A stretch of DNA of 45,851 nucleotides from a virus (Duplodnaviria > Caudoviricetes): positions 1 to 45,851 of the IMG/VR virus record IMGVR_UViG_3300005980_000004. One strand, written 5' to 3'. The position numbers and the translations under genes were made by a program. Below the pieces are notes generated by a model. It made no database searches and was not told where the DNA came from. It was given only the letters and a program-made list of their open reading frames with translations. This document shows positions 17,759-45,851 of this stretch, piece by piece. Positions within the stretch are counted from its first letter, which is position 1, and the number at the start of each line of letters is the position of its first letter.

Positions 17759-18010
17759 TTAAGCCTCAGGTTCAGCGGCCGGAGCCTGTGCTTCAGTCGG
17801 CGCTGGAGTAGCCTCAGGGGCCGCTTCAGGAACAGCCTCAGCAGGGGCCTGATCTGCCACTTTTTTGGTGCGGCGACCGCCTTTGGCGATCTCCTCGACA
17901 ACTTGGTCGTCGTCGGACAGATCGCAAGCATTTATCAGCCGCGAGCCGCCTTCCACCGAGTCATCCACGATTCGCACGACATCGAGCACATCCGTAGAAA
18001 TGATTTGCAT
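17759..18010 (-). CDS. Hypothetical acidic protein with Pro/Ala/Glu tail
   Basis: GGAGG RBS; directly after the coat gene. Confidence 0.65.
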   Translation of the reverse strand: MQIISTDVLDVVRIVDDSVEGGSRLINACDLSDDDQVVEEIAKGGRRTKKVADQAPAEAVPEAAPEATPAPTEAQAPAAEPEA

Positions 18011-18071
18011 GTTTTATCCTCCGCAAAGCGAGTCGGCGGACTATTTTCAAGCCGCCGACTTCAGGCGCCGA

Positions 18072-19202
18072 TTAGCCGGCGATCCGAGTACCCAGCTCAG
18101 GACGGACGCAAGCGCCGCCATAGAGGATGTCGAACGAGTAGCGGGTCTGTTTGTGCTGACGGGTGATTTCCAGGCGCAGCGACAGGCCGGACACTGGGTC
18201 AACCTGGGATACGCTGATCACGGCCGGGTGCGACACTTCCTGCAGCGGACGAGTAGCGAAGGCGATCGCATCGCGGTGGAAGGCCAGGTTCATCACGTGA
18301 CTGGCTTTCAGGGTGACAGTTTCACCGCCGGCGGTGGCAACTGCCAAGCCTGGGTAGATCGAAACGCTGGTGTTACCGACGGCCAGAGTGGTAGCAGCAG
18401 TCACCACGTAGGTCTGAGAGCTACCGGCGAAACTGATGATGTCGCCTTTTACCAGCGGGCTGGCGTTGGTTGCTTTGGCGATCGATACCACCTTAGCACC
18501 GACAGCATTGACGCCGTTCGCGGTGCAAGCGCCGGAAGTCAGCGGGGTAGATACGAAGGTAGGGACCTGCTGGTCTGCGTACCAGTCGAAGCCTACCTTG
18601 CGGCCGATAACGCCCTCAACCAGGGTGGTGTTGTTGCCGGCCATTTGTGCCTGCTGGAACATCGGCAGGACGATGGCGTTACCTTCCGAGTCCATGTCCA
18701 GCACGATGCGGCGGTCGCCAGTCGGTGCCAGTTGCTTGTTCAGCAGCTTGCGCGCGATCGATGCCGCAGTAGTGTCGGAGGCAAACGGCGTGGTGCCTGG
18801 GGTACCGGACATGCTGAAGAAGCTGGTGCCCAGGTTGAGGATGTAAGCGTTGACGTTGTTCGCAATCGCCTTGATGGCCTCGGTCGCCTGCATCGGCACG
18901 TAGCCATTCATCACGTTCATGGCTTCTTGGTCGGTGATGTAGAACGGCGCTTCGTACCACTGATCCAGGGTGATCGGCACGCTGGTCGGCGAGGTGTCGG
19001 CGGTCACTGGCGGGGTTGCACCAGGGGCGACCGGCTGCGCAGCGATAGCGGAAGGGATCGGCACGTTGATGACCGAGTTCTTTTCCTGAGCGGCGCCCTG
19101 GTAGTCAGAGTTGACCAGGCGGGGCATAACGTTCATGGCGCGCAACGCGACCAGGCCTTGAGCCAGGAGAGGCGTTGCGACTTGCGTTAATACGTTGGAC
19201 AT
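18072..19202 (-). CDS. Major capsid protein (P22 coat-like)
   Basis: 376 aa; NLAFHRDAIAFATRPL and FDILYG....RPE motifs. Confidence 0.9.
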   Translation of the reverse strand: MSNVLTQVATPLLAQGLVALRAMNVMPRLVNSDYQGAAQEKNSVINVPIPSAIAAQPVAPGATPPVTADTSPTSVPITLDQWYEAPFYITDQEAMNVMNGYVPMQATEAIKAIANNVNAYILNLGTSFFSMSGTPGTTPFASDTTAASIARKLLNKQLAPTGDRRIVLDMDSEGNAIVLPMFQQAQMAGNNTTLVEGVIGRKVGFDWYADQQVPTFVSTPLTSGACTANGVNAVGAKVVSIAKATNASPLVKGDIISFAGSSQTYVVTAATTLAVGNTSVSIYPGLAVATAGGETVTLKASHVMNLAFHRDAIAFATRPLQEVSHPAVISVSQVDPVSGLSLRLEITRQHKQTRYSFDILYGGACVRPELGTRIAG

Positions 19203-28419: not shown

Positions 28420-28694
28420 TGCGCGTCTCCGGCGAGGGCTTCGGCTTTCAGGGCTGCGTATGCGACACAGTCTTCGGCAGAATCGGCGTGGTAGGTCGGG
28501 TTCTGCCACTGGCGCACGTCTTTCAGGATCTGGAGTAGTAGCCACCCTTCGGCCTCGGTCAGGGCCTGCCCGGTGATGGTGTTGAAGGCAGACACAGCGG
28601 TGCCCATGCTGCGCTCGCCTTCCGGCTTGTCGTACTGCTGGCCACGCTCCAGCATGAGGGCCTGGGCCTTACCAAGAAATTCGTGCGCCTTCAT
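28416..28694 (-). CDS. DUF6378 / T7 gp1.7-like nucleotide-metabolism protein
   Basis: ERG.QYD...ERS, LK..R and DS..D.VAY.AL motifs. Confidence 0.65.
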   Translation of the reverse strand: MKAHEFLGKAQALMLERGQQYDKPEGERSMGTAVSAFNTITGQALTEAEGWLLLQILKDVRQWQNPTYHADSAEDCVAYAALKAEALAGDAQ

Positions 28695-29305
28695 GCTGTT
28701 ACTCCTGTTTCCGAGAAACGAGTGCGCAATGCCATTGCAATGCGCGGATCAACCTGCATATCGGCATAGGCAAGAGCAAGTTCGTGTTTTCTCGCTCGCC
28801 ACGCCTCATGGGCCTCATTGGGGTCGGCGAAAACGCCGAGGTATTCGCTCTTCCCGGTAAATGGGTTCTTGCACTGAGACTGGAATTTTCCAGTGCTCTT
28901 GCTCCAGCAAACCCCGATCGGCCATTCACCACGAGCCGCTCCACCGTCCAACATGAAGCTGTTGATCTGAGCAGAAACGAGCACACACGTTTCAGGGCTG
29001 TACACCTTGTTGCCAGGAGTGATGATGTCTTTGTCAAGCTGCTTGCCTTCCCAGTCTTGCGTTAGCATCCAGCCACGAAAAGCCGAAAATGAGTGCCATT
29101 CGGGCGAAACGGTGCATCGCATGTAGGTAGGATATTTGGCCTTAAGCTTCGGTGAATGGCAGCGCCTCAACATGCTCTTCCATGCCTGATAGATTGGGCA
29201 CCGCCATGTAGTACTCTGCCGGCCATCTATAGAGATCCAAGTCGATACCGGATAATCGGCATCATTGACCCCAACACCCTGGACTAGCCCCCTACTTGAT
29301 TTCAT
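28691..29305 (-). CDS. HNH-related homing endonuclease with AP2-like C-terminus
   Basis: GVGVND, W.SMLRRC, EWHSFSAF, LDKD...GNKVYSPETC and YLG.F....EAH motifs. Confidence 0.75.
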   Translation of the reverse strand: MKSSRGLVQGVGVNDADYPVSTWISIDGRQSTTWRCPIYQAWKSMLRRCHSPKLKAKYPTYMRCTVSPEWHSFSAFRGWMLTQDWEGKQLDKDIITPGNKVYSPETCVLVSAQINSFMLDGGAARGEWPIGVCWSKSTGKFQSQCKNPFTGKSEYLGVFADPNEAHEAWRARKHELALAYADMQVDPRIAMALRTRFSETGVTA

Positions 29306-31066: not shown

Positions 31067-31596
31067 CAAACAGCCCTCCCGTGGTTTACATGGAAGCCGC
31101 GATAGAATTCTGCTGACTTCCTCGCGCATACCGCCTCAAAAAAGTCTTTGTAGTGGCCGAGGTAGACATTCGCGCAGACGCTTCTGTCGTCAGACCCAAT
31201 GGTTACCTCCCAGCGATTCCTTCGAGTCAACCAGTAAACACCCATCACTCCGCTTTTGTTGGTTGCGCGGCGCCTTTGGTTGCGGCTGCTTTCTGTGCGA
31301 TCCGCGCGCCGCAGGTTGACGAACCGGTTGTCTTGACGGTCTCCATTGATATGGTCAACGTCCGCTTCCGGCAACGAACCATCGACCAGCAGGAATGCAA
31401 GCCGATGTGCCAGGTAATAAGTCCCTTCTAAGCCAATCTGCACATATCCTTTCCCATTGACGTATCCGGCTTTTTTACCAATCAAATCCACGCGGGGCCC
31501 GCGGCAGGTTTTCCATCGAAAATCGCCAGTATCAGGATCGTAATCAAGATGCGTACTGACAAACGCCCTGTCGATAATCTTCACTGATCTGGTCAT
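31066..31596 (-). CDS. HNH homing endonuclease
   Basis: YDPDTG.F.W, AHRLA and VDHINGDRQDNRFVNLR motifs. Confidence 0.9.
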   Translation of the reverse strand: MTRSVKIIDRAFVSTHLDYDPDTGDFRWKTCRGPRVDLIGKKAGYVNGKGYVQIGLEGTYYLAHRLAFLLVDGSLPEADVDHINGDRQDNRFVNLRRADRTESSRNQRRRATNKSGVMGVYWLTRRNRWEVTIGSDDRSVCANVYLGHYKDFFEAVCARKSAEFYRGFHVNHGRAV

Positions 31597-32186
31597 GACT
31601 GCTCTCCCTGGCCCAGGGCGGCCAACTTGCGGCGGATGCGCGCCGTCGGACCTTCGGGGCTTGGCCCAACGAACTCTTCGGTAGTTGGCGGCACTGGCTC
31701 GCCGGCGAGAATTTTCAATCGGCGAATCTCGGCGCACAGCTCATGGTGAGACCGGACCAGCTCTAGCGTTCCCCGCCCATGGCAGAAGCTCAGCAAGCGA
31801 TAGGATTCGGCATCCTTGCGCAGCGCCTCAACCTCAAACACCAGCCCGGTCAGCGCCTCAATCGCGGCTTTGTCCCCGAAGTAGATGTGCTCTCCACCCT
31901 CTTCGCCGTAGCTGCAGTAGGTTTCGGTTTTGGCCTTGAGCGCCTCGTTCTCGGCCTTGATCTGGTCGCGCTCGGCGATCAGGGCCAGGACTGCGGCAGG
32001 ATTTGCGGCAGCGATGAACTTCAGCGCCGCGTAATACGCCTCGTCCTCCACGTCATGCCCGGCATCGGCATCCAACATATGCCGTGTGTAACCGTCGTCC
32101 TTAAAATACAGGGAATCGTTTTCGGCGATCCACGGACCGCTCGGCGCAGCGTCGGCCAGCCGCTTCAGTTCGGTGTAGTCGTTCAT
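31593..32186 (-). CDS. Ead/Ea22-like protein
   Basis: LKRLA.AA..GPW and FIAAANPAAVLALIAE motifs. Confidence 0.75.
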   Translation of the reverse strand: MNDYTELKRLADAAPSGPWIAENDSLYFKDDGYTRHMLDADAGHDVEDEAYYAALKFIAAANPAAVLALIAERDQIKAENEALKAKTETYCSYGEEGGEHIYFGDKAAIEALTGLVFEVEALRKDAESYRLLSFCHGRGTLELVRSHHELCAEIRRLKILAGEPVPPTTEEFVGPSPEGPTARIRRKLAALGQGEQS

Positions 32187-34130: not shown

Positions 34131-34745
34131 TCAGGCCACCGCAGCGCAGGAGTAACCGCGGCGCTGACTATCAGTCGCTCCGTGATTTGGGTGAAAGCCA
34201 TAGATGGCTTCGGCGTCTTTACGGGCAGCTACGGCTGAATCGAAATTTTGAAACCGACCTACACAGATGTACTTGCCGTCAATTTTGATTCGAACACGCC
34301 ATTTGCCATTTTCAAGGCGGACGCCAGGAACGCCGGATGAGTTGTCTTTTCGGATATGCTGATTACGCTGATTGCCTTGTACCGTTACATCGCGCAGATT
34401 CTCGATACGGTTGTCATCACGAATACCATTGATGTGGTCAATCTGGCCTTTTGGCCATTCGCCATAGGTAATCAGCCAAATAACTCTATGGACTCGGAAC
34501 AAAACGTTGTTGATTTTTACCCGCAGATAACCGTCCATGTTTGGTGAGCCGGCGATCATTCCTGGCATCGCCCTGGCGCCTCGCCGAACTAGATTCACGA
34601 GCTTTCCGTCAACAACCCTGAAAAGCCTTCTGGCCTCAGTAGCTGAAAGTAAAATCTCTATATTTCCAGGCGCTACGTTTTTTGATTGCGAAAAACGTGG
34701 CGCGGGATTATTCAGGGCCTGTACATCGAGATTAGAGGTGTGCAT
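34131..34745 (-). CDS. HNH homing endonuclease with AP2-like domain
   Basis: VHRVIW, IDHINGIRDDNRIENLR and NSSGVPGV motifs. Confidence 0.9.
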   Translation of the reverse strand: MHTSNLDVQALNNPAPRFSQSKNVAPGNIEILLSATEARRLFRVVDGKLVNLVRRGARAMPGMIAGSPNMDGYLRVKINNVLFRVHRVIWLITYGEWPKGQIDHINGIRDDNRIENLRDVTVQGNQRNQHIRKDNSSGVPGVRLENGKWRVRIKIDGKYICVGRFQNFDSAVAARKDAEAIYGFHPNHGATDSQRRGYSCAAVA

Positions 34746-37903: not shown

Positions 37904-38221
37904 ATGAGCGATTCATTCCAAAGTAAAAACATCGTCAAGGCGCGAAGCCCGCACAACTGCGAATGCTGCCGCCGAACCATCAACCCTGGCGAGCGGTACA
38001 TAAATATTGCCGGGAAGTGGGATGGCGATTTCTACGCAGTCAAGACCTGCATGGGCTGCGACAGCCTCATGGATTTGATCTGGCAGTTCGATGTAGATCA
38101 CGGCGGATGGCTTGCAGAGGATGGCCTGCCTTTCCGCGAGGTAATCGAAATCGGCGAAGAGTTCGGCCTTATTTGCAGGATTCCAGAGCGGCCAACCATT
38201 ACAGCCGCCCATTCCGCCTAA
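37904..38221 (+). CDS. Hypothetical Zn-binding protein
   Basis: KAR..H.CECC...I.PGE.Y and C..C motifs; GGAGA RBS. Confidence 0.75.
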   Translation: MSDSFQSKNIVKARSPHNCECCRRTINPGERYINIAGKWDGDFYAVKTCMGCDSLMDLIWQFDVDHGGWLAEDGLPFREVIEIGEEFGLICRIPERPTITAAHSA

Positions 38222-38242
38222 CCCCAAACACTGGAGGTCGCC

Positions 38243-38503
38243 ATGACCGTCACGACAGAGAGCGCCGCGGTGTTCCGTGGCGGTGGGCGCAGGTGGTTCA
38301 CGCTGCGCGCTGCATGCAAGGCAGAAGCCCGAGCGCTGCTGAATAAGCACTGCGCCTGCGACTACTGCGACCACGAAGGCTGGGGGCGCGAGGATCTGCC
38401 ATGCCGCCTTCATCATCCAGACCGCTACCCCCGAATCATCAAGCGCCTCACTGACGGCCTCGTGCGCCGCTACCGAGCGCAGACAACGAGAACACAGCCA
38501 TGA
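38243..38503 (+). CDS. Hypothetical protein
   Basis: GGAGG RBS; GRRWFTL.AA motif. Confidence 0.7.
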   Translation: MTVTTESAAVFRGGGRRWFTLRAACKAEARALLNKHCACDYCDHEGWGREDLPCRLHHPDRYPRIIKRLTDGLVRRYRAQTTRTQP

Positions 38504-38799
38504 GCGCAACAGTTGAAGTGAGTTGCGCATGGTGCGCCGATAAGTTCACCGCACGAACTGCTGACCGAAAGCGCGGATGGGGCAGGTTTTGCTCAAAATC
38601 GTGCAAGTCCAGCAAACAGAAGTACGGCGCTACCAAATCCTTTTGGGAAAAAGCCAACCCTAACAATAAGCGCAGCAATATCGCCAAGTACGGTGAGCGC
38701 CTGTTGCGCGACAGCGACGGATGCATCAACGACGACGTTGATATTTCCGATATGGATTGGGGCGCCAGCGATGGCGGCGGTTACGAATCAATCAGGTGA
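38500..38799 (+). CDS. Hypothetical zinc-finger protein
   Basis: CAWC...F...RG.GRFCSKSC. Confidence 0.7.
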   Translation: MSATVEVSCAWCADKFTARTADRKRGWGRFCSKSCKSSKQKYGATKSFWEKANPNNKRSNIAKYGERLLRDSDGCINDDVDISDMDWGASDGGGYESIR

Positions 38800-38813
38800 G
38801 CCTGGAGGCGACC

Positions 38814-39251
38814 ATGAACGCAGCATTGAAGATATGCCAAGAGCGTTACGACGCTCAGTTGCCTCCAGAGGTAAGTGAGGCGGACCCGGAACAGGAGTGG
38901 CTGGAACACTCGGCGGAACAGCTGGTGTGCGGGATGGACATCAAGTGGAAGCGGCGCTTTGGTCGTCCGCAGGTGGTGACCTTCGACCGGTATTGCACCT
39001 ACCTGCAAGGCATCCTGAATCATCGCCAGGAAGAAGGCCTGGACGAGCGTGACTCGTTCGCCCGCCTGTTCCTATCCTCGATCCTCGGCAGTCAGGCGGA
39101 TTCACGCGGCCACGCTGCTGACTTGATCGGCCAGCCCCGCCCCATCGAAGCCGCAGAGAAGATCGCCATCGCGCTGCTCAGGCCCTACGCCGCCGACGCG
39201 GTGGCAGCAGAGCGCGAAGCGGCCGAAGACGACGTGGATGGTGACCTATGA
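38814..39251 (+). CDS. Hypothetical protein
   Basis: GGAGG RBS; MNAALKICQERYDAQLPP start. Confidence 0.75.
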   Translation: MNAALKICQERYDAQLPPEVSEADPEQEWLEHSAEQLVCGMDIKWKRRFGRPQVVTFDRYCTYLQGILNHRQEEGLDERDSFARLFLSSILGSQADSRGHAADLIGQPRPIEAAEKIAIALLRPYAADAVAAEREAAEDDVDGDL

Positions 39252-39463
39252 ATAACCCGACCACCCTCGCCCGCCTGGGCCTGGAAATCACCAAGATGAA
39301 GAAGTCCTGCACCCCGGTGCCAGACCGAACCTTCGTCATGGGCATGATCGAAATGGCGGAGTTTGCCAGCCTGATCGACGCCCGCACCGCCAACCGTTAC
39401 CGCGATGCACTGGACGCCAAGTTCGTCGAGCGCAACCAGCAGCTCAAGAGGGCCGCCGCATGA
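39248..39463 (+). CDS. Hypothetical protein
   Basis: ATGA-coupled 71-aa ORF. Confidence 0.7.
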   Translation: MNNPTTLARLGLEITKMKKSCTPVPDRTFVMGMIEMAEFASLIDARTANRYRDALDAKFVERNQQLKRAAA

Positions 39464-39654
39464 CCACTTCGCCAGTAAAAACGATCGTAGACGAGCAGCT
39501 CGACGACATTGAGCGCCGAATTGCCATTCTTGGCTTCCGCCTTCCCTTCAATGAACTGATCGGCCGCAAGCGGGAAGAGCTGGTGCGTGACCTGCCGGAT
39601 CGCCTGGCACCGACAATGAAGGGCGGGCGGATCGCGGTGAGGGTTCGGCCATGA
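39460..39654 (+). CDS. Hypothetical protein
   Basis: ATGA-coupled 64-aa ORF. Confidence 0.7.
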   Translation: MTTSPVKTIVDEQLDDIERRIAILGFRLPFNELIGRKREELVRDLPDRLAPTMKGGRIAVRVRP

Positions 39655-40007
39655 ATCCGCGCATTGAAAAGAAGCTGAGCAAGCGGCTTGTTCGACTGTA
39701 CCCATCGCTCTATGGGCGCGCCTGGATTGACAGTGATCATTCGGAGCTTGCCTACGACGAAAACTCGAATGTTCGGCATTGCCCAAGCGTTGGAGGCGAG
39801 TATGACTCATACAGCGGCGACAGCAACGAGTCATACACCGTATGGGCTTCCTGGCTACAGATGTGGCCTTGGCACGGCCCGTTCGAAGAGTATCCGCATG
39901 GTCACCAATTCGCGATGTACCCGAACACCGAAGGCTTCAAGCCAACCACGCGAAACCTGCTGAAGCTGGCTGCGGAATGCGAGAAGGCCGAGCGACTGGA
40001 ATCATGA
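39651..40007 (+). CDS. Hypothetical protein
   Basis: ATGA-coupled 118-aa ORF. Confidence 0.7.
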   Translation: MNPRIEKKLSKRLVRLYPSLYGRAWIDSDHSELAYDENSNVRHCPSVGGEYDSYSGDSNESYTVWASWLQMWPWHGPFEEYPHGHQFAMYPNTEGFKPTTRNLLKLAAECEKAERLES

Positions 40008-40120
40008 CCACCCGCCAGCGCACCCGGCGCATGCTCATCTGGTGCGGCTCTTTCTATGCCCTCGCCGTCTGCACCTTCCTAATGTTGCTCGGCGCCCTCG
40101 CTGATCGAATCACTCAATAA
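40004..40120 (+). CDS. 38-aa single-TM peptide
   Basis: MTTRQRTRRMLIW...LLGALADRITQ; ATGA-coupled. Confidence 0.6.
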   Translation: MTTRQRTRRMLIWCGSFYALAVCTFLMLLGALADRITQ

Positions 40121-40163
40121 CCAACACCTTCAATCGCTGCGAGCATCGCGGCAAGGATTCCTC

Positions 40164-41321
40164 ATGTCCGCACAACAGCAAGTAATCACCATTGACGACA
40201 TCAGTGCCGATAACGCGCCGACCATCTACGTCACCGGCGGCCTGGGTCAGTTCTTCGACGCAGTGCAGGCCGAGGTCACCGGCGAGGTGCCCGACCTGGC
40301 CAGTCGCAAGGGTCGCGAGCGCATTGCCTCGCTGGCCGCGAAGGTCAGCAAGTCGAAGGCGGCAGTCGAGAAGCCGGGCCGCGACTACCTGAAGCGCCTC
40401 AAGGAAATGCCGAAGGTGGTCGAGGCAGAGCTGCGCGAGTTCGTCACCAAGATGGACAACCTGCGCGACGCTACCCGCAAGCCGCTGACGGACTGGGAAC
40501 AGGCAGAGATTGCCCGTACCGACAAACACGTCGACGGCATCCAGAACATCAAAGACCTGGCCTTTTTCGAAGAGTCGCCGAGCGCCGCCAAAGTCGCCCA
40601 GATCATCGCCGACTTGGAGCTGATCGCGATCAACGACACCTGGGAAGAATTCTTGGCCGAGGCCGCCCAGGTGAAGGATCAGACCCTGACCAAGCTGCGC
40701 GGCATTCTGGCCGAGCGCACCCAGTACGAGGCCGAGCAAGCCGAGCTGATCAGGCTGCGGGCTGAGGCAGAAGCACAGGCCCAGCGAGACCGCGATGCAG
40801 AGATTGCCCGGGTAGCGGCTGAGCAGGCACGAATCCAAGCTGAGCAGCGGGCCCAGGCCGAGCGTGATGCAGCAGCGCGCCGCGAACAGGAGTTGCTGGA
40901 CCAGGCAGCAGCAGCGCAACGGGCAACCGAACAGGCCGCCCGCGATGCAGAAGCCGCCGCCGAACGCCAGCGCCTTCAACTGGAGCTCCAGGCGGAACAG
41001 TCAGAGCGCCATGCCGCCCAAGCCAAGGCCGACCAGTTGGCAGCCGAGCAGCGCGCCGAGCAGGAGCGTTTGGCCGCCGAGCAGCGACAAGCGCAGGCGG
41101 TTGAGCAGGCCCGCAAGAACGAACTGGCGCGCCAAGCCGCAGCCGCAGCGTTTGAGCTTGAGCAGGCCCAGGCCCGCGAAGCCGACGAGGCGCACCGCAG
41201 TGCAATAAACCGTGCCGCCCTAGACGCTTTCATTGCTGGAGGTATGCCAGAGGAATGCGCCAAGCAAGCAGTCAAGCTGATCGCCCAGCGCAAGATTCCA
41301 GCCATCACCATTTCCTACTGA
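40164..41321 (+). CDS. Coiled-coil protein preceding RecT
   Basis: Long Ala/Glu/Gln/Arg helix; N-terminal KGRERIASLA.KV.KSK; C-terminal IP..TISY. Confidence 0.8.
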   Translation: MSAQQQVITIDDISADNAPTIYVTGGLGQFFDAVQAEVTGEVPDLASRKGRERIASLAAKVSKSKAAVEKPGRDYLKRLKEMPKVVEAELREFVTKMDNLRDATRKPLTDWEQAEIARTDKHVDGIQNIKDLAFFEESPSAAKVAQIIADLELIAINDTWEEFLAEAAQVKDQTLTKLRGILAERTQYEAEQAELIRLRAEAEAQAQRDRDAEIARVAAEQARIQAEQRAQAERDAAARREQELLDQAAAAQRATEQAARDAEAAAERQRLQLELQAEQSERHAAQAKADQLAAEQRAEQERLAAEQRQAQAVEQARKNELARQAAAAAFELEQAQAREADEAHRSAINRAALDAFIAGGMPEECAKQAVKLIAQRKIPAITISY

Positions 41322-41328
41322 GGTCGCC

Positions 41329-42273
41329 ATGAGCCAGGCCGTCGCAACCATCACGCAGGACATCTACGGCGCGCGCAATCAGTTCGCCAATGTCCTGACC
41401 GACCGCTCGCTGAACTTCGAGCGCGAGGCTGAATTCGCTATTCAGGTGATCACCTCCAGCGAGTACGCCACCAAGATCGCCGTCCAGAACCGGCAGTCAG
41501 TGGTCAACGCCATCACCAACATCGCCGCAATCGGCATCAGCCTGAACCCGGCGAAAAAGCAGGCCTACTTAGTCCCCAGGGACGGGAAGATCTGCCTCGA
41601 TATCAGCTACATCGGCTTGATGGATCTGGCCATGGCCACAGGCGCTATTCGCTGGGCCCAGGCCGAACTAGTCTACACGGCTGATTCATTCGCGCTTAAC
41701 GGCTTCGACAAGCCGCCGACCCACTCATACAACCCGTTCGCAAAGGATCGCGGCGAGGCTGTCGGCGTGTATGTAGTGGTCAAGACCGCCGACGGTGACT
41801 ATCTCACTGAGACGATGAGCATCGACGACGTGAACGCCATCCGCGACCGCTCCAGCGCCTGGAAGGCATGGATTAGCAAGAAGTCATCCTGCCCGTGGGT
41901 CACCGACCCTGGCGAGATGATGAAGAAGACAGTGGTCAAGCGAGGGTACAAGTACTGGCCAAAGACAGAACGTCTGGAGCAGGCGATCCACCACCTGAAC
42001 ACCGACGGAGGAGAAGGCCTTGCATCAATTCAGGGATCGGCACCAACCGATACAGAGATGGTGAACGACTGGATTGATCTGGCGATGCGCGCCGGCAGCC
42101 TGGAAGCACTCGCCGAGGTTTACCACAACGCCACGTCCGCCATGAAACAAGCCAAAGACGCTGCTGGTCATGCCCGCTTCAAGGTGGAAGTGACCAAGCG
42201 CAGCGAAACCCTGAAAGCAGCAGCCGAGCCTATCGAGGGCGAAGCTGAGGAGGTGTTAGATGGAGCAGCGTAG
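41329..42273 (+). CDS. recT: RecT-family ssDNA annealing protein
   Basis: GISLNP, AYLVP, ISY.GL and PW.TD..EM..KTV.KR..K.WP motifs. Confidence 0.92.
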   Translation: MSQAVATITQDIYGARNQFANVLTDRSLNFEREAEFAIQVITSSEYATKIAVQNRQSVVNAITNIAAIGISLNPAKKQAYLVPRDGKICLDISYIGLMDLAMATGAIRWAQAELVYTADSFALNGFDKPPTHSYNPFAKDRGEAVGVYVVVKTADGDYLTETMSIDDVNAIRDRSSAWKAWISKKSSCPWVTDPGEMMKKTVVKRGYKYWPKTERLEQAIHHLNTDGGEGLASIQGSAPTDTEMVNDWIDLAMRAGSLEALAEVYHNATSAMKQAKDAAGHARFKVEVTKRSETLKAAAEPIEGEAEEVLDGAA

Positions 42274-42892
42274 CGCTGAATGGTTTGCGGCCAGGCTTGG
42301 GAATGTCACAGCCAGCCGGGTCAAGGACGTGATGGCCAGCGGGCGCGGTGGTGCGCCTTCTGCCACTCGCAAAAACTACATGATGGAGTTGTTGTGCGAG
42401 CGACTGACTGGTCAGCAGGGCGGCATGGATCTTTCGCGCAACGCGGCTGTTCAGCGCGGCGTCGAGCTTGAGCCATTCGCCTGCATGGCCTATGAGGCTG
42501 ACAAAGACCTGATGGTGGTCGAGACTGGATTGGTCATGCACCCGACCATTCAAGGTTTCGGCGCATCGCCAGACGGTCTATCGGGTGATGACGGCGTGCT
42601 TGAGATCAAGTGCCCTAACACTGCGACCCACATCGCGACCATGCAGTCCGGCAAGCATGACCCTCAGTACGAGTGGCAGATGCTTGCCCAGATGGCTTGC
42701 ACAGGCCGCAAGTGGGCTGACTTCGTGAGTTACGACGACCGCCTTCCCGAGGAGCTTCAGTACGTCTGCTTCCGGTATGAGTTTGACTTCAAACGAGCCC
42801 GCGAGATGGAGGCCGAAATAAAGGCATTCCTGGAAGAGCTGGCCGAACTTGAGAAGGAAATGCGGGAGCGGATGGGGAGCAAAGCAGCATGA
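42260..42892 (+). CDS. YqaJ/lambda-exonuclease family protein
   Basis: QRS.EW...R.G.VTAS, GASPDG and LEIKCP motifs. Confidence 0.92.
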   Translation: MEQRSAEWFAARLGNVTASRVKDVMASGRGGAPSATRKNYMMELLCERLTGQQGGMDLSRNAAVQRGVELEPFACMAYEADKDLMVVETGLVMHPTIQGFGASPDGLSGDDGVLEIKCPNTATHIATMQSGKHDPQYEWQMLAQMACTGRKWADFVSYDDRLPEELQYVCFRYEFDFKRAREMEAEIKAFLEELAELEKEMRERMGSKAA

Positions 42893-43482
42893 TCAGCAAC
42901 CACCTAGGCATGGTCGAGGCTCTTCGGCCGGCATCGAACGAACTGGCCGCAGCGGTCGAGCAGTTCCTGGCGGCCGGCGGCCATATCGAAGAAGGGCCGG
43001 CCTGCGGCTACATCCCCAAGCCCATCACCTACAGCAACCAGATGCCGCCAGCGCCAAAGCCGTTTGTGCGGCGCCGGGTCGAGCCGGCTCCCCTACCATT
43101 TGCGCCGCTCGACGTCAGGAGCGACAAGCGCGCAAAGCAGGCAGAGCTGGCAAAGGCCCTGGCCACCACCCACACGCAAAGCCAAGCCTCTATGGCGCTT
43201 GGAATGACCAGCAAGACGCTCAAGGGCCTGGCAAAGGACTTCGGCTTCACGTTCAAGCGGTCAGAACACGGCGGCTACAACGGGCCTGAGCGCCAAAAGC
43301 AACTGGTCGAGCGAAACGCCAAATTTGCCGAGCGCATCAAGGAATTCAAGGCGCTTGGCATCACTCGCCGCCAGGCATGCGGAAAGCTCGCGATCTCCAA
43401 CAAGACGTTTGATCGAATCCTTGAAGAGCATGGAATTGATTATCCGAAAGCATGCCTTGGGCGTCCTTCATGCGCCGCATAG
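42889..43482 (+). CDS. Hypothetical protein with two HTH-like repeats
   Basis: FLAAGG.I N-terminal motif; two ...LG.S.KT...I/L...G helical repeats. Confidence 0.7.
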   Translation: MISNHLGMVEALRPASNELAAAVEQFLAAGGHIEEGPACGYIPKPITYSNQMPPAPKPFVRRRVEPAPLPFAPLDVRSDKRAKQAELAKALATTHTQSQASMALGMTSKTLKGLAKDFGFTFKRSEHGGYNGPERQKQLVERNAKFAERIKEFKALGITRRQACGKLAISNKTFDRILEEHGIDYPKACLGRPSCAA

Positions 43483-43551
43483 CCCGCACCCAGCAACGCA
43501 AACGTCAAACCTGGCTCGCACTGCCGGCCAGCGGAATAGAAGAGGTAGGCC

Positions 43552-43875
43552 ATGGCGAAATCACCACAGGAACGCTCGGCCAAAACTGCCAGGAAGCGCG
43601 TGGCGAATGCCGAAGAGGAACTGAGGCTCAGGGTTCGCCCAGGAACACGCCAGGCCCTGGCCGATCTGATGGAGTGGTCAGGCATTACTGAGCAGGGCGA
43701 GGCGATGACGCTGATGATTCATCACCTGCATGCGCTAGGCTCGAAAGCCACATTCCTGCTTGATCCGCCGCGCCACAAAATCCAGATATCCGAAAACGTG
43801 GCGCGGGAATTCCGCAATAAAAGCCTTCTCGCCATCCAGAAAGACCCGGGCGACGAGATCATCGAGCCCGCATAA
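43552..43875 (+). CDS. Hypothetical protein
   Basis: GAGG RBS; MAKS.QERS.K start. Confidence 0.7.
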   Translation: MAKSPQERSAKTARKRVANAEEELRLRVRPGTRQALADLMEWSGITEQGEAMTLMIHHLHALGSKATFLLDPPRHKIQISENVAREFRNKSLLAIQKDPGDEIIEPA

Positions 43876-43892
43876 CCCTTCGAGGAACACCT

Positions 43893-44504
43893 ATGAAAGC
43901 CAAGACCATTTCCATCGAGGCTGACGGCCTCAAAATCAAAGGCCCGGCGGAGCGCATGATTCATCTGCTGGCCGCAAGCATGTTTGCCCAGGCATTGCCG
44001 CCGGCAGCGAATGTTCAGCCAGCACCCCAATCCCCAACCCCGGAGATCGGCCAGCCTTGGCCGGGCCAGGGCGGCATCAACGGAGGCTTCGTCCATGCCC
44101 GCGGTGATGTTCCGGCGCATTATCTGATCATCGCCGCCAAGGACGTTGGAAGCCTTGAATGGGGTGGCCGTGGCGTTGAGGTGAAGGGTCTAAGCAAGAC
44201 TGACGGCTACACCAACACCCAGGTGCTGATCGGCAATGATGACGAGCGAAAGTACCCGGCGGCTGATGCCTGTGCCGAGTACCAGGCTGATGGTTATCAT
44301 GACTTCTACCTGCCGGCCGCTGCCGAGCTGTATCACTGCTGGCTGAACTATCCTGAGGTGCTCGCCCAGGACTGCTATTACTGGTCGAGTTCGCAGCGCT
44401 CAGCCTACTACGCATTCGGCATGTACTTCGGTGATGGCACTCAGCACTACAACGAAAAGCTCAACGAGCTCCGTGTCCGCCCCGTCCGCAGATTCTTTAT
44501 TTAA
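43893..44504 (+). CDS. DUF1566/CLec-like DGR target protein 1
   Basis: DG..NT, YLPA..EL, YWSSSQ...A....F..G and RVRPVRR motifs; carries VR1. Confidence 0.85.
   Translation: MKAKTISIEADGLKIKGPAERMIHLLAASMFAQALPPAANVQPAPQSPTPEIGQPWPGQGGINGGFVHARGDVPAHYLIIAAKDVGSLEWGGRGVEVKGLSKTDGYTNTQVLIGNDDERKYPAADACAEYQADGYHDFYLPAAAELYHCWLNYPEVLAQDCYYWSSSQRSAYYAFGMYFGDGTQHYNEKLNELRVRPVRRFFI
44379..44492 (+). repeat. DGR variable repeat VR1
   Basis: 98/114 identical to 45076-45189, with mismatches confined to nine AAY-like codons. Confidence 0.85.
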
Positions 44505-44539
44505 TCCTTCATCCATTCGTTCTTGATCCGGCACACCAG

Positions 44540-44558
44540 GGCGCACAGCGCCTTTTTT
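44540..44558 (+). other. Hairpin downstream of VR1 (DGR target-recognition cruciform or weak terminator)
   Basis: GGCGC-ACA-GCGCC then T6, about 50 bp after the GC-rich VR end. Confidence 0.45.
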
Positions 44559-44583
44559 GTTGCCTTCGAAAAGAGGAAGCATC

Positions 44584-45207
44584 ATGTCCGCAGTTGAGAA
44601 AGCAGCACCGGCCGTAACCCCCCTAGCCATCGGCCACGCCTACGGCGGCGGTTTCGTCACCGGCATTACCCGCGACCCGGTAACCGGACAGCGCTTCCTG
44701 AACATCACCGCTGGTGCCGAGCATGAACTGGTCGGCAAGTGGGGCGAGTACGGCGAGAAGATCGAGGGCGCCGACAGCTTCACCGACAGCCTGGCCAATA
44801 CCCAGGCAATGGCGGCGGCAGGCAGCGAACTGGCAGCGAAGGTCCTGGCCCTGAGCATCGAAGGCTTCACCGACTGGGCAATCCCGGCGCGCGACGTGCA
44901 AGAGATGCAGTACCGCCACTTCAAACCGACCACCGAAGAAAACTGGGCAGGCGCCCGCAGCGGTGACAACCCGAACAGCGAGCCAGTAGGCCTGCTGTAC
45001 AGCGAAGAAGACCCGGCGCAGACCGCACACGCAGCATTCCAGGAGGGCGGCGCCGAAGCCTTCCGCGACACCTGGTACTGGTCGAGTTCGCAGCGCTCAG
45101 CCAGCATCGCATTCAACATGTACTTCGGTGATGGCTATCAGGGCAGCCACGACAAGCTCCGCGAGCTCCGTGTCCGCCCCGTCCGCAGAATTCTGATCGA
45201 GGCTTAA
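44584..45207 (+). CDS. DUF1566/CLec-like DGR target protein 2
   Basis: GGGFV.G, D...NT.AM, DW.IPARD..E, YWSSSQ and RVRPVRR motifs; carries VR2. Confidence 0.85.
   Translation: MSAVEKAAPAVTPLAIGHAYGGGFVTGITRDPVTGQRFLNITAGAEHELVGKWGEYGEKIEGADSFTDSLANTQAMAAAGSELAAKVLALSIEGFTDWAIPARDVQEMQYRHFKPTTEENWAGARSGDNPNSEPVGLLYSEEDPAQTAHAAFQEGGAEAFRDTWYWSSSQRSASIAFNMYFGDGYQGSHDKLRELRVRPVRRILIEA
45076..45189 (+). repeat. DGR variable repeat VR2
   Basis: Partner of VR1; see the corresponding finding. Confidence 0.85.
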
Positions 45208-45211
45208 ATCA

Positions 45212-45673
45212 ATGGCGACACGTGAATCGCTGAAAGCCAGATCGGTGCGTGTTGGTGAATGCCTGATCTGGCGCGGAGGTCTGAACCCTGGTGGCTACGG
45301 CTATGTATGGCATGAAGGGAAGAATCGGGCGACTCATCGCGTTTCATACGAGATGAATGTCGGCCCGATACCCGAAGGCCTTGAATTGCTTCACTCCTGC
45401 GACACGCCATCATGTATTGAGCCTTCTCACCTGTCGCCCGGCACCCATGCCGCAAATATGAAGGAAATGGCAGACAGAAAACGCTGTAACCGGCCCTCAG
45501 GCGAAATGCATTCGCTCGCCAAGCTTACCGAGGCCCAAGCCGCCGACATTCGCAGGCGCTACAAGCCTTACTGCCGAATCAACAGCAGTTGCGCCATTGC
45601 GAAAGAGCTTGGCGTATCGCAGCGAACGGTTTGGGCGGTGATCAAGGGCATCACCTGGAAAGAGTCGTCCTAG
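45212..45673 (+). CDS. HNH (His-Cys/zinc-finger type) homing endonuclease with C-terminal HTH
   Basis: C..W.G....GYG, THRVSY, LHSCD.P.C.EP.HL..GT...N and AKLT...IAKELGVS motifs. Confidence 0.9.
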   Translation: MATRESLKARSVRVGECLIWRGGLNPGGYGYVWHEGKNRATHRVSYEMNVGPIPEGLELLHSCDTPSCIEPSHLSPGTHAANMKEMADRKRCNRPSGEMHSLAKLTEAQAADIRRRYKPYCRINSSCAIAKELGVSQRTVWAVIKGITWKESS

Positions 45674-45741
45674 CCCGTGTCGTGCTGAAGCGCGGCAACA
45701 GCGTCAACGCGGCGCTGACCAAGACCTACCAGAAGAAATAA
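45670..45741 (+). pseudogene. Putative 3' remnant of a DGR reverse transcriptase
   Basis: Startless frame LARVVLKRGNSVNAALTKTYQKK-stop with coding-like codon usage; resembles C-termini of Pseudomonas prophage DGR RTs as recalled, not searched. Confidence 0.55.
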
Positions 45742-45801
45742 CCCAACCCCATCAACGAATCACGCCAGCCGGCGAGGCAGGCGCACGCTTGGAGATAACC
45801 C

Positions 45802-45851
45802 ATGAGCACCTTTGCAGTGTTTGGAATGACCCTCGATGTCGCCATGGCCGA
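45802..45851 (+). CDS. Partial hypothetical protein running off the window
   Basis: GGAGA RBS; MSTFAVFGMTLDVAMA... Confidence 0.55.
   Translation, partial: MSTFAVFGMTLDVAMA

Follow-up and report, generated by a model that had tools for sequence, protein, structure and literature searches.

An HNH endonuclease gene in place of the engine of a two-target diversity-generating retroelement in a virus related to Pseudomonas phages

In the virus contig analyzed here (45,851 bases and about 87% complete; the whole stretch is called the window), the engine of a real diversity-generating retroelement (DGR) was replaced by an HNH gene. The locus is a DGR remnant with two target genes, of which the variable repeats (VRs) differ from the cognate template repeat (TR) at adenines. 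Comparison with relatives established the replacement and its borders, and showed that it recurs with HNH genes of seven families, that the HNH genes evolve under purifying selection, and that three sister families have moved laterally. The HNH protein is a probable member of the free-standing homing endonucleases. The explanation that we favor, with a probability of roughly 0.6, is that such an enzyme likely spread by overwriting intact, dispensable DGRs. The selfish spread has strong comparative support, and the cleavage is putative.

A scan of 45 of the 54 ORFs to the left of position 38,000 detected genes for a CI-like repressor, tail sheath, terminase and portal, and the relatives of the record were Pseudomonas phages and prophages. 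The locus with the two targets and the HNH gene forms the end of an early operon, downstream of genes for RecT and YqaJ. These proteins could supply short-homology repair, a role at the HNH locus that we infer. No sigma-70-like promoter was detected in 43800-45851. Elsewhere in the window, a 197-aa early gene (42889-43482, plus strand) gave a weak N-terminal match to the SutA RNAP-binding domain (E 2.4e-5, below the cut-off). At 17865-19187, a plus-strand frame that matches no family was the longest-ORF call; a minus-strand major capsid gene would be expected there. Three more HNH endonuclease genes were found on the minus strand in the replication/nin region (28694-29305, 31069-31737 and 34134-34745). 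The features of the locus are listed in Table 1.

Table 1. Positions of the DGR remnant, the HNH gene and the recombination genes in the window
Feature	Position	Strand	Evidence
RecT and YqaJ recombination genes	41329..42892	+	PF03837 E 3e-30; PF09588 E 4e-24
DGR target gene 1 (203 aa, small Lcl_C/DUF1566-type, intact ORF)	43893..44504	+	PF07603 E 1.5e-7 (below the curated Pfam cut-off); phrog_4245 E 1e-31
VR1	44391..44491	+	against the L002 TR, 11 of 32 adenines and 1 of 69 other positions changed
Hairpin after VR1, then a T run (also a terminator-like score)	44538..44554	+	same sequence in intact L002
DGR target gene 2 (207 aa, intact ORF; last codons from the incoming cassette)	44584..45207	+	
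VR2 (putative left exchange arm)	45088..45188	+	against the L002 TR, 13 of 32 adenines and 0 of 69 other positions changed
Left junction (new target 2 end and 4-nt spacer)	45189..45211	+	alignment with L005, L032 and intact loci
Free-standing HNH gene (153 aa; HNH_3 and C-terminal helix-turn-helix)	45212..45673	+	PF13392 E 2.8e-9, above the cut-off
Last 23 codons and stop of the DGR RT (putative right exchange arm)	45670..45741	+	2 of 69 nt mismatched to the nearest intact tail

The two target genes share a repeat of about 120 nt, and for both the Lcl_C/DUF1566 match is weak and below the Pfam cut-off. PADLOC gave no match for the target proteins and only weak matches to its homing-endonuclease models. 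The reference for the VRs of the window was the TR of an intact relative, locus L002. The sequence-only reading had stated that VR1 keeps a downstream hairpin and VR2 has none, and this was borne out: a 5-bp Watson-Crick stem is present 3′ of VR1, and the best stem within 80 nt 3′ of VR2 has 3 bp. A stem of at least 5 bp follows VR2 in 72 of 76 intact loci. In Bordetella BPP-1, the prototype DGR, efficient retrohoming depends on the hairpin that follows the VR (Guo et al., PMC3240598). Therefore, VR2 may be a poor target even in trans.

The HNH ATG at 45212 lies 4 nt beyond the target 2 stop at 45207, and the HNH TAG (45671-45673) overlaps the first codon of a frame that reads LARVVLKRGNSVNAALTKTYQKK-stop (45670-45741), so that the arrangement described earlier stands. 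Of 71 loci retrieved with target 2, 63 contained a match to the peptide of this frame, at 57-100% identity. The peptide had been likened to the C-terminus of a DGR reverse transcriptase (RT). In the intact loci it is indeed the last 23 residues of the RT, a 386-aa RVT_1 protein encoded downstream of the bAvd gene and the Rfam RT-15 RNA, and it belongs to no non-RT gene. The proposal of the MSTFAVFG gene as a conserved neighbor failed, since this gene was present in 3 of the 71 loci and never directly after the RT. The segment at the left junction is common to three family-A alleles (the window, L005 and L032). We place this junction at about 45189-45195, directly after VR2, because the incoming cassette rewrote the last codons of target 2.

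The gene order of the intact relatives is target 1, target 2, hairpin, avd, spacer RNA, TR and RT, and these loci give a match to the Rfam RT-15 RNA. Comparison with these relatives confirmed that the HNH gene had replaced avd-TR-RT, as had been supposed from the window alone: about 1.7 kb (hairpin, avd, spacer RNA, TR and RT body) was exchanged for about 0.47 kb. No full-length DGR RT was detected in the record, which contains just the C-terminal tail and a VR-derived match. Over 3661 nt, the window is matched exactly by the metagenome locus L253, which extends 3.3 kb further, with a 129-aa ORF and a C5 methylase. Neither a TR nor an RT was found in this extension of 3.3 kb. The window and L253 contain just two copies of the VR 3′ core and no third. 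The RT-15 spacer RNA gave no Rfam match in the window, and no avd match was obtained downstream of target 2 in the search of 38001-45851. Since L253 may be from the same sample, it is treated as an extension of the window and not as independent support. The junction of the HNH gene and the tail is bridged by contigs from two other studies (X2 and X4); thus, it is no assembly artefact. Contig X1 matches 43800-45780 of the window exactly and is possibly its source. Because of this, and because contigs lose rare variants, X1 gives no evidence on VR variation either way. With no TR and RT in cis, neither target would diversify any longer unless a different DGR supplied the engine in trans. With the queries used, no second element of the DGR family was detected in the host genomes of the HNH-type prophages G012, G019 and G045.

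As DGRs, the intact relatives are ordinary: they have two targets and fall into category d, the group (CLec2) of phage DGRs with short DUF1566 targets described in parts of Wu et al. (PMC5758913). Three repeats could be scored in 76 intact loci, in which VR1 differed from the TR at 1094 of 2282 adenines and 37 of 4938 other positions, and VR2 at 1057 of 2282 adenines and 21 of 4938 others. The median pairwise identity of the 101-nt TR was 98% (76 loci), versus 81.6% for the RT gene (108 intact loci), and such a highly conserved TR would be an attractive nuclease target. The avd genes are of two types, mutually only about 50% identical, and the slot of the first gene after the intact RT is highly variable. 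Two loci of the DGR family were found in 3 of 36 positive genomes, and TR-type and HNH-type contigs co-occurred within the same metagenomes, which would give the two kinds of allele an opportunity to meet. Cultured phages of both types are in public records. Aurca01 and Medea1 carry a family-B HNH gene, annotated as RecB or hypothetical (loci among L076, L078 and L079), and Cruim01, for which the host strain and source are as for Aurca01, carries an intact DGR.

The HNH gene of the window is an ORF of its own between the target 2 stop and the RT tail; with no Rfam match in the window, it is not part of an intron or intein. The C-terminal helix-turn-helix was indicated by Pfam hints. H61, H73, N82 and the flanking cysteines are invariant across 18 aligned relatives. 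A structure model from 18 sequences reached a pLDDT of 84.6, and a single-sequence fold (pLDDT 47) was set aside. The top structural match of the model was I-HmuI (PDB 1u3e), covering residues 3-92 with a Foldseek E of 1.1e-3. VIA gave a Z of 8.0 and an rmsd of 2.6 over 80 aligned residues for I-HmuI, and a Z of 6.6 for I-PpoI. Sequence searches of the PDB with the HNH protein yielded no nuclease match, I-HmuI included. I-HmuI is intron-encoded, nicks one strand and has a C-terminal helix-turn-helix. The window protein shares this C-terminal element but is only 18-19% identical, and its gene is free-standing. The predicted I-HmuI-like fold alone does not show that the HNH protein is active. 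The dN/dS values of the HNH genes in families A, B, D and G were 0.04-0.08, indicating purifying selection. The gene is patchily present among related phages and some alleles are decayed; the two broken alleles are L210 (premature stop) and L092 (frameshift).

The recurrence of the replacement was analyzed by two censuses. In the target 2 census, which comprised 70 loci (the distant match L071 was dropped and duplicates were kept), 56 loci possess avd and a full RT, four end at the locus edge, and ten lack the RT. An HNH gene occupies the slot in eight of these ten. The other two (L001 and L021) have a truncated avd without RT or tail, followed by unrelated genes. For the tail census, into which a viral pattern scan of at least 119 of about 130 stretches was fed, the tail was present in 286 of 306 sequences, or 166 after identical ones were collapsed, among the matches listed. 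Again among the matches listed, 126 of the 166 have a full RT, 18 end at the locus edge, and 22 have no RT body. An HNH profile match ending at the tail was detected in 18 of these 22 listed loci, and L210 is the nineteenth, giving an HNH gene in the slot in 19 of 22 loci and in seven families. As a control, HNH genes account for one of the 101 first genes after an intact RT (a callable ORF was available in 101 of 144 RT-bearing loci). Since three other HNH genes are present in its genome, the HNH background of the window phage exceeds this 1%. Across all 166 loci listed, six other HNH profile matches lie within 3.5 kb of the tail.

The engine is thus absent in about one in seven scorable tail loci (22 of 148, among the matches listed), mostly via HNH genes, in a census that is blind to losses that took the tail too. 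Four loci (L213, L214, L256 and L345) kept the tail and lost the engine with no HNH gene; therefore, the engine is also removed by plain deletion, which may spare the tail. L213 has lost its targets as well and has a junction similar to that of family G. In a genus sample, the tail was found in 36 of 401 genomes. Among the 30 loci fetched from it, 26 have a full RT (one of them from the unpublished genome G113), one has a partial RT, two are family-G replacements in elements already counted, and one is a deletion without HNH. No close family-A gene was detected in the 401 genomes, where four distant matches were obtained, one of them inside a DGR.

The seven families consist of A (the window and L005), B (five loci, including Aurca01 and Medea1), C (L068), D (four loci), E (L092), F (L102) and G (five loci). 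The HNH proteins of different families are 33-54% identical, with the exception of E and F (67% over a fragment). Family D showed no BLAST similarity to the others and represents a separate HNH lineage, phrog_374. L032 (81%) also belongs to family A, and as judged by eye it retains only about ten codons of a tail that has diverged. Depending on the family, the left junction follows the VR, the hairpin or avd, or falls within the TR, and the right junctions are located at about RT codons 303, 344, 357 and 364. The displacement proposed for the window hence appears as independent events in families A-G. In every family, the HNH stop codon closes against the RT tail. The part missing from every family comprises most of the TR and roughly RT codons 1-302, and no cut site could be predicted from this segment. 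In L008, L009 and L212 of family D, the cassette begins about 23 nt into the TR, and avd and RT-15 are kept. The TR remnant of L009 shows VR-like changes at adenines, as if the cassette had moved between VR and TR by homology.

Lateral movement was examined with 14 scorable sister pairs of families B, D and G, in which the HNH DNA is 97-100% identical. The upstream 450 nt is 49-65% identical in seven pairs, 79-82% in three and at least 94% in four; as sister pairs are not independent, the seven diverged pairs represent three separate cases (B, D and G). The HNH genes of L208 and L209 are identical, the upstream targets of the two loci are unrelated, and their tails differ at 16 positions. In the control of 108 intact loci, the RTs were at least 97% identical in 5 of 5778 pairs, and the upstream targets of all five were 96-100% identical, so that the linkage control consists of five pairs only. 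In most sister pairs the tails start to differ 15-24 nt past the HNH stop, even where the HNH genes are identical. Most of these differences are synonymous when read in the RT frame, and a stop codon occurs in none of the 19 tails. Coding-like divergence would not be expected of a fragment that has no start codon, so the tails most likely came from different working RT genes. The VR2 variants all differ between sister alleles at TR-adenine positions, which fits capture of the current variant of the recipient; trans-mutagenesis would look alike. We gave little weight to the finding that 13 of 16 tails were at least as near to an intact RT as to a sister allele, because it is biased by the far larger number of intact tails, and to the presence of 121 of 123 polymorphic states in intact RTs as well.

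For family A, the window and L005 are 87% identical in the HNH gene and 85% in target 2, and the target 1 region and the downstream genes are unrelated. The family-A cluster has 30 members from several Pseudomonas species. Six of 12 fetched members possess C-terminal extensions as from reading into the RT tail, and three of these six match the peptide that intact tails give in that frame. The comparisons thus demonstrate lateral movement for the sister families B, D and G and suggest it indirectly for family A, and they indicate that the replacement is recurrent, HNH-specific and mobile in relatives. At L342:2558-4796 (G198), a family-F relative was found between the VR2 hairpin and an avd that is followed by intact RT-15, TR and RT. 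Its HNH gene is 78% identical to that of L102, and the two are sisters in the tree (100/100). L342 is a possible insertion intermediate. Because its HNH gene stands beside an intact avd-TR-RT, the family-F lineage need not cut the engine.

We propose that the exchange begins when an HNH phage and a DGR-positive relative are in one cell, where the enzyme would cut or nick the segment that is lost, either internally or at its border. Repair, probably through the phage RecT/YqaJ system, would then copy the HNH allele, with the constant VR bases as the left arm and the RT tail as the right arm. The recipient would retain its own VR variants and RT tail and lose the engine, and the product would be without the cut site. 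The tail is proposed to persist because it is the only conserved right-hand homology, the genes further downstream varying by phage. A wider interpretation, to which we give slightly less than an even chance, is that DGRs are parasitised, and that the ability to cut the near-invariant TR/RT core, and to overwrite it via the VR and tail arms, arose repeatedly in unrelated HNH enzymes.

The order of events may have been different. The HNH gene could have homed harmlessly to the junction of VR2, hairpin and avd start, and a later deletion could have taken avd-TR-RT. The shorter allele would spread by homing since the VR and tail are better conserved than avd, and the DGR loss would be a passenger. 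L342, with the HNH gene at the avd start and the engine present, and its relative L102, with the same left position and no engine, agree with this order, as do the existence of HNH-free deletions and the low identity between the two avd types of intact loci. However, insertion alleles were found in 0 of the 126 intact tail loci listed and 1 of the 26 intact genus-sample loci, versus 19 replacements. Families C and D retain the hairpin and avd, and therefore need another site. Moreover, random later deletions would not favor HNH stops that hug the RT tail in each family. We consider insertion followed by deletion a serious rival, although a rather unlikely one.

It is improbable that homing played no part, that is, that phage recombinases swapped the module by short homology and selection favored the loss of the DGR. 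The high proportion of HNH genes among the replacements (19 of 22 in seven families, among the matches listed, versus 1 of 101 genes in the neighboring slot) would be left unexplained, as would the HNH alleles that cross backgrounds when near-identical intact RTs stay with their targets. The gain in such a swap would be a fixed good target variant or the 1.25 kb saved, with the HNH gene as a passenger or serving, e.g., to cut competing phages. In agreement with it, the phage encodes RecT and YqaJ, the gene that follows the RT varies greatly among loci, plain deletions occur, the window phage has three further HNH genes, and purifying selection indicates function, not homing. A DGR that is still active via a remote TR and RT, or a junction produced by assembly, is very improbable. 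The record has a completeness of about 87%, the sequence compared for L253 stops about 2.8 kb short of the end of its contig, and the VR adenine positions differ among sister alleles, which capture from different recipients explains equally well. Against a remote DGR, no third VR/TR copy or RT body is present in the window or the 3.3 kb beyond, and G012, G019 and G045 lack a second element as far as the queries used can tell. Against an artefact, the junction recurs in L005 and in the X2 and X4 contigs.

Homing of the HNH gene would have parallels in the T-even phages, in which the free-standing endonucleases SegF, SegG and MobE perform intronless homing (parts of PMC2988022). As in those cases, a promoter-less nuclease gene lies tight behind an upstream gene and is patchy among relatives. 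MobE is also of the HNH class, and the HNH gene of the window would likewise spread by gene conversion in mixed infection. The T4 enzymes cut conserved genes or regions (56, 32, nrdB, uvsX, uvsW and the tRNA region), which are exchanged for the donor allele (parts of PMC2988022). In contrast, the HNH allele of the window would delete a dispensable multi-gene retroelement. In ICP1-like phages, homing endonuclease genes are found at boundaries of genetic exchange (sections of Barth et al., PMC10055350). Variable presence, frameshifted alleles and different nucleases at one position are common to both systems; however, the ICP1 genes flank essential genes as cargo, whereas in the window the neighboring module has been removed. 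With respect to known DGRs, the intact relatives resemble category d and BPP-1 elements in their hairpins, avd, RT-15 RNA, TR, RT and adenine-specific TR-VR differences. The window differs as a remnant without avd, RT-15, TR, RT body and VR2 hairpin, and the targets of its DGR are early-operon proteins, not tail fibres. No description of an endonuclease replacing a DGR was found in the literature, in which subscription journals were thinly covered, and the available portions of PMC12386605 and PMC12629997 contain no mention of HNH.

The replacement provides a testable explanation for the many phages that retain DGR targets but no engine, and it would constitute a selfish force against hypermutation that is independent of the benefit of the DGR. 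If the homing explanation is true, homing extends from allele exchange in conserved genes to the deletion of a whole retroelement. If DGRs are indeed parasitised by repeatedly evolved HNH enzymes, each event would freeze the target variant of the recipient, and the HNH genes would act as a gene drive in nature, turning hypermutation off throughout phage populations.
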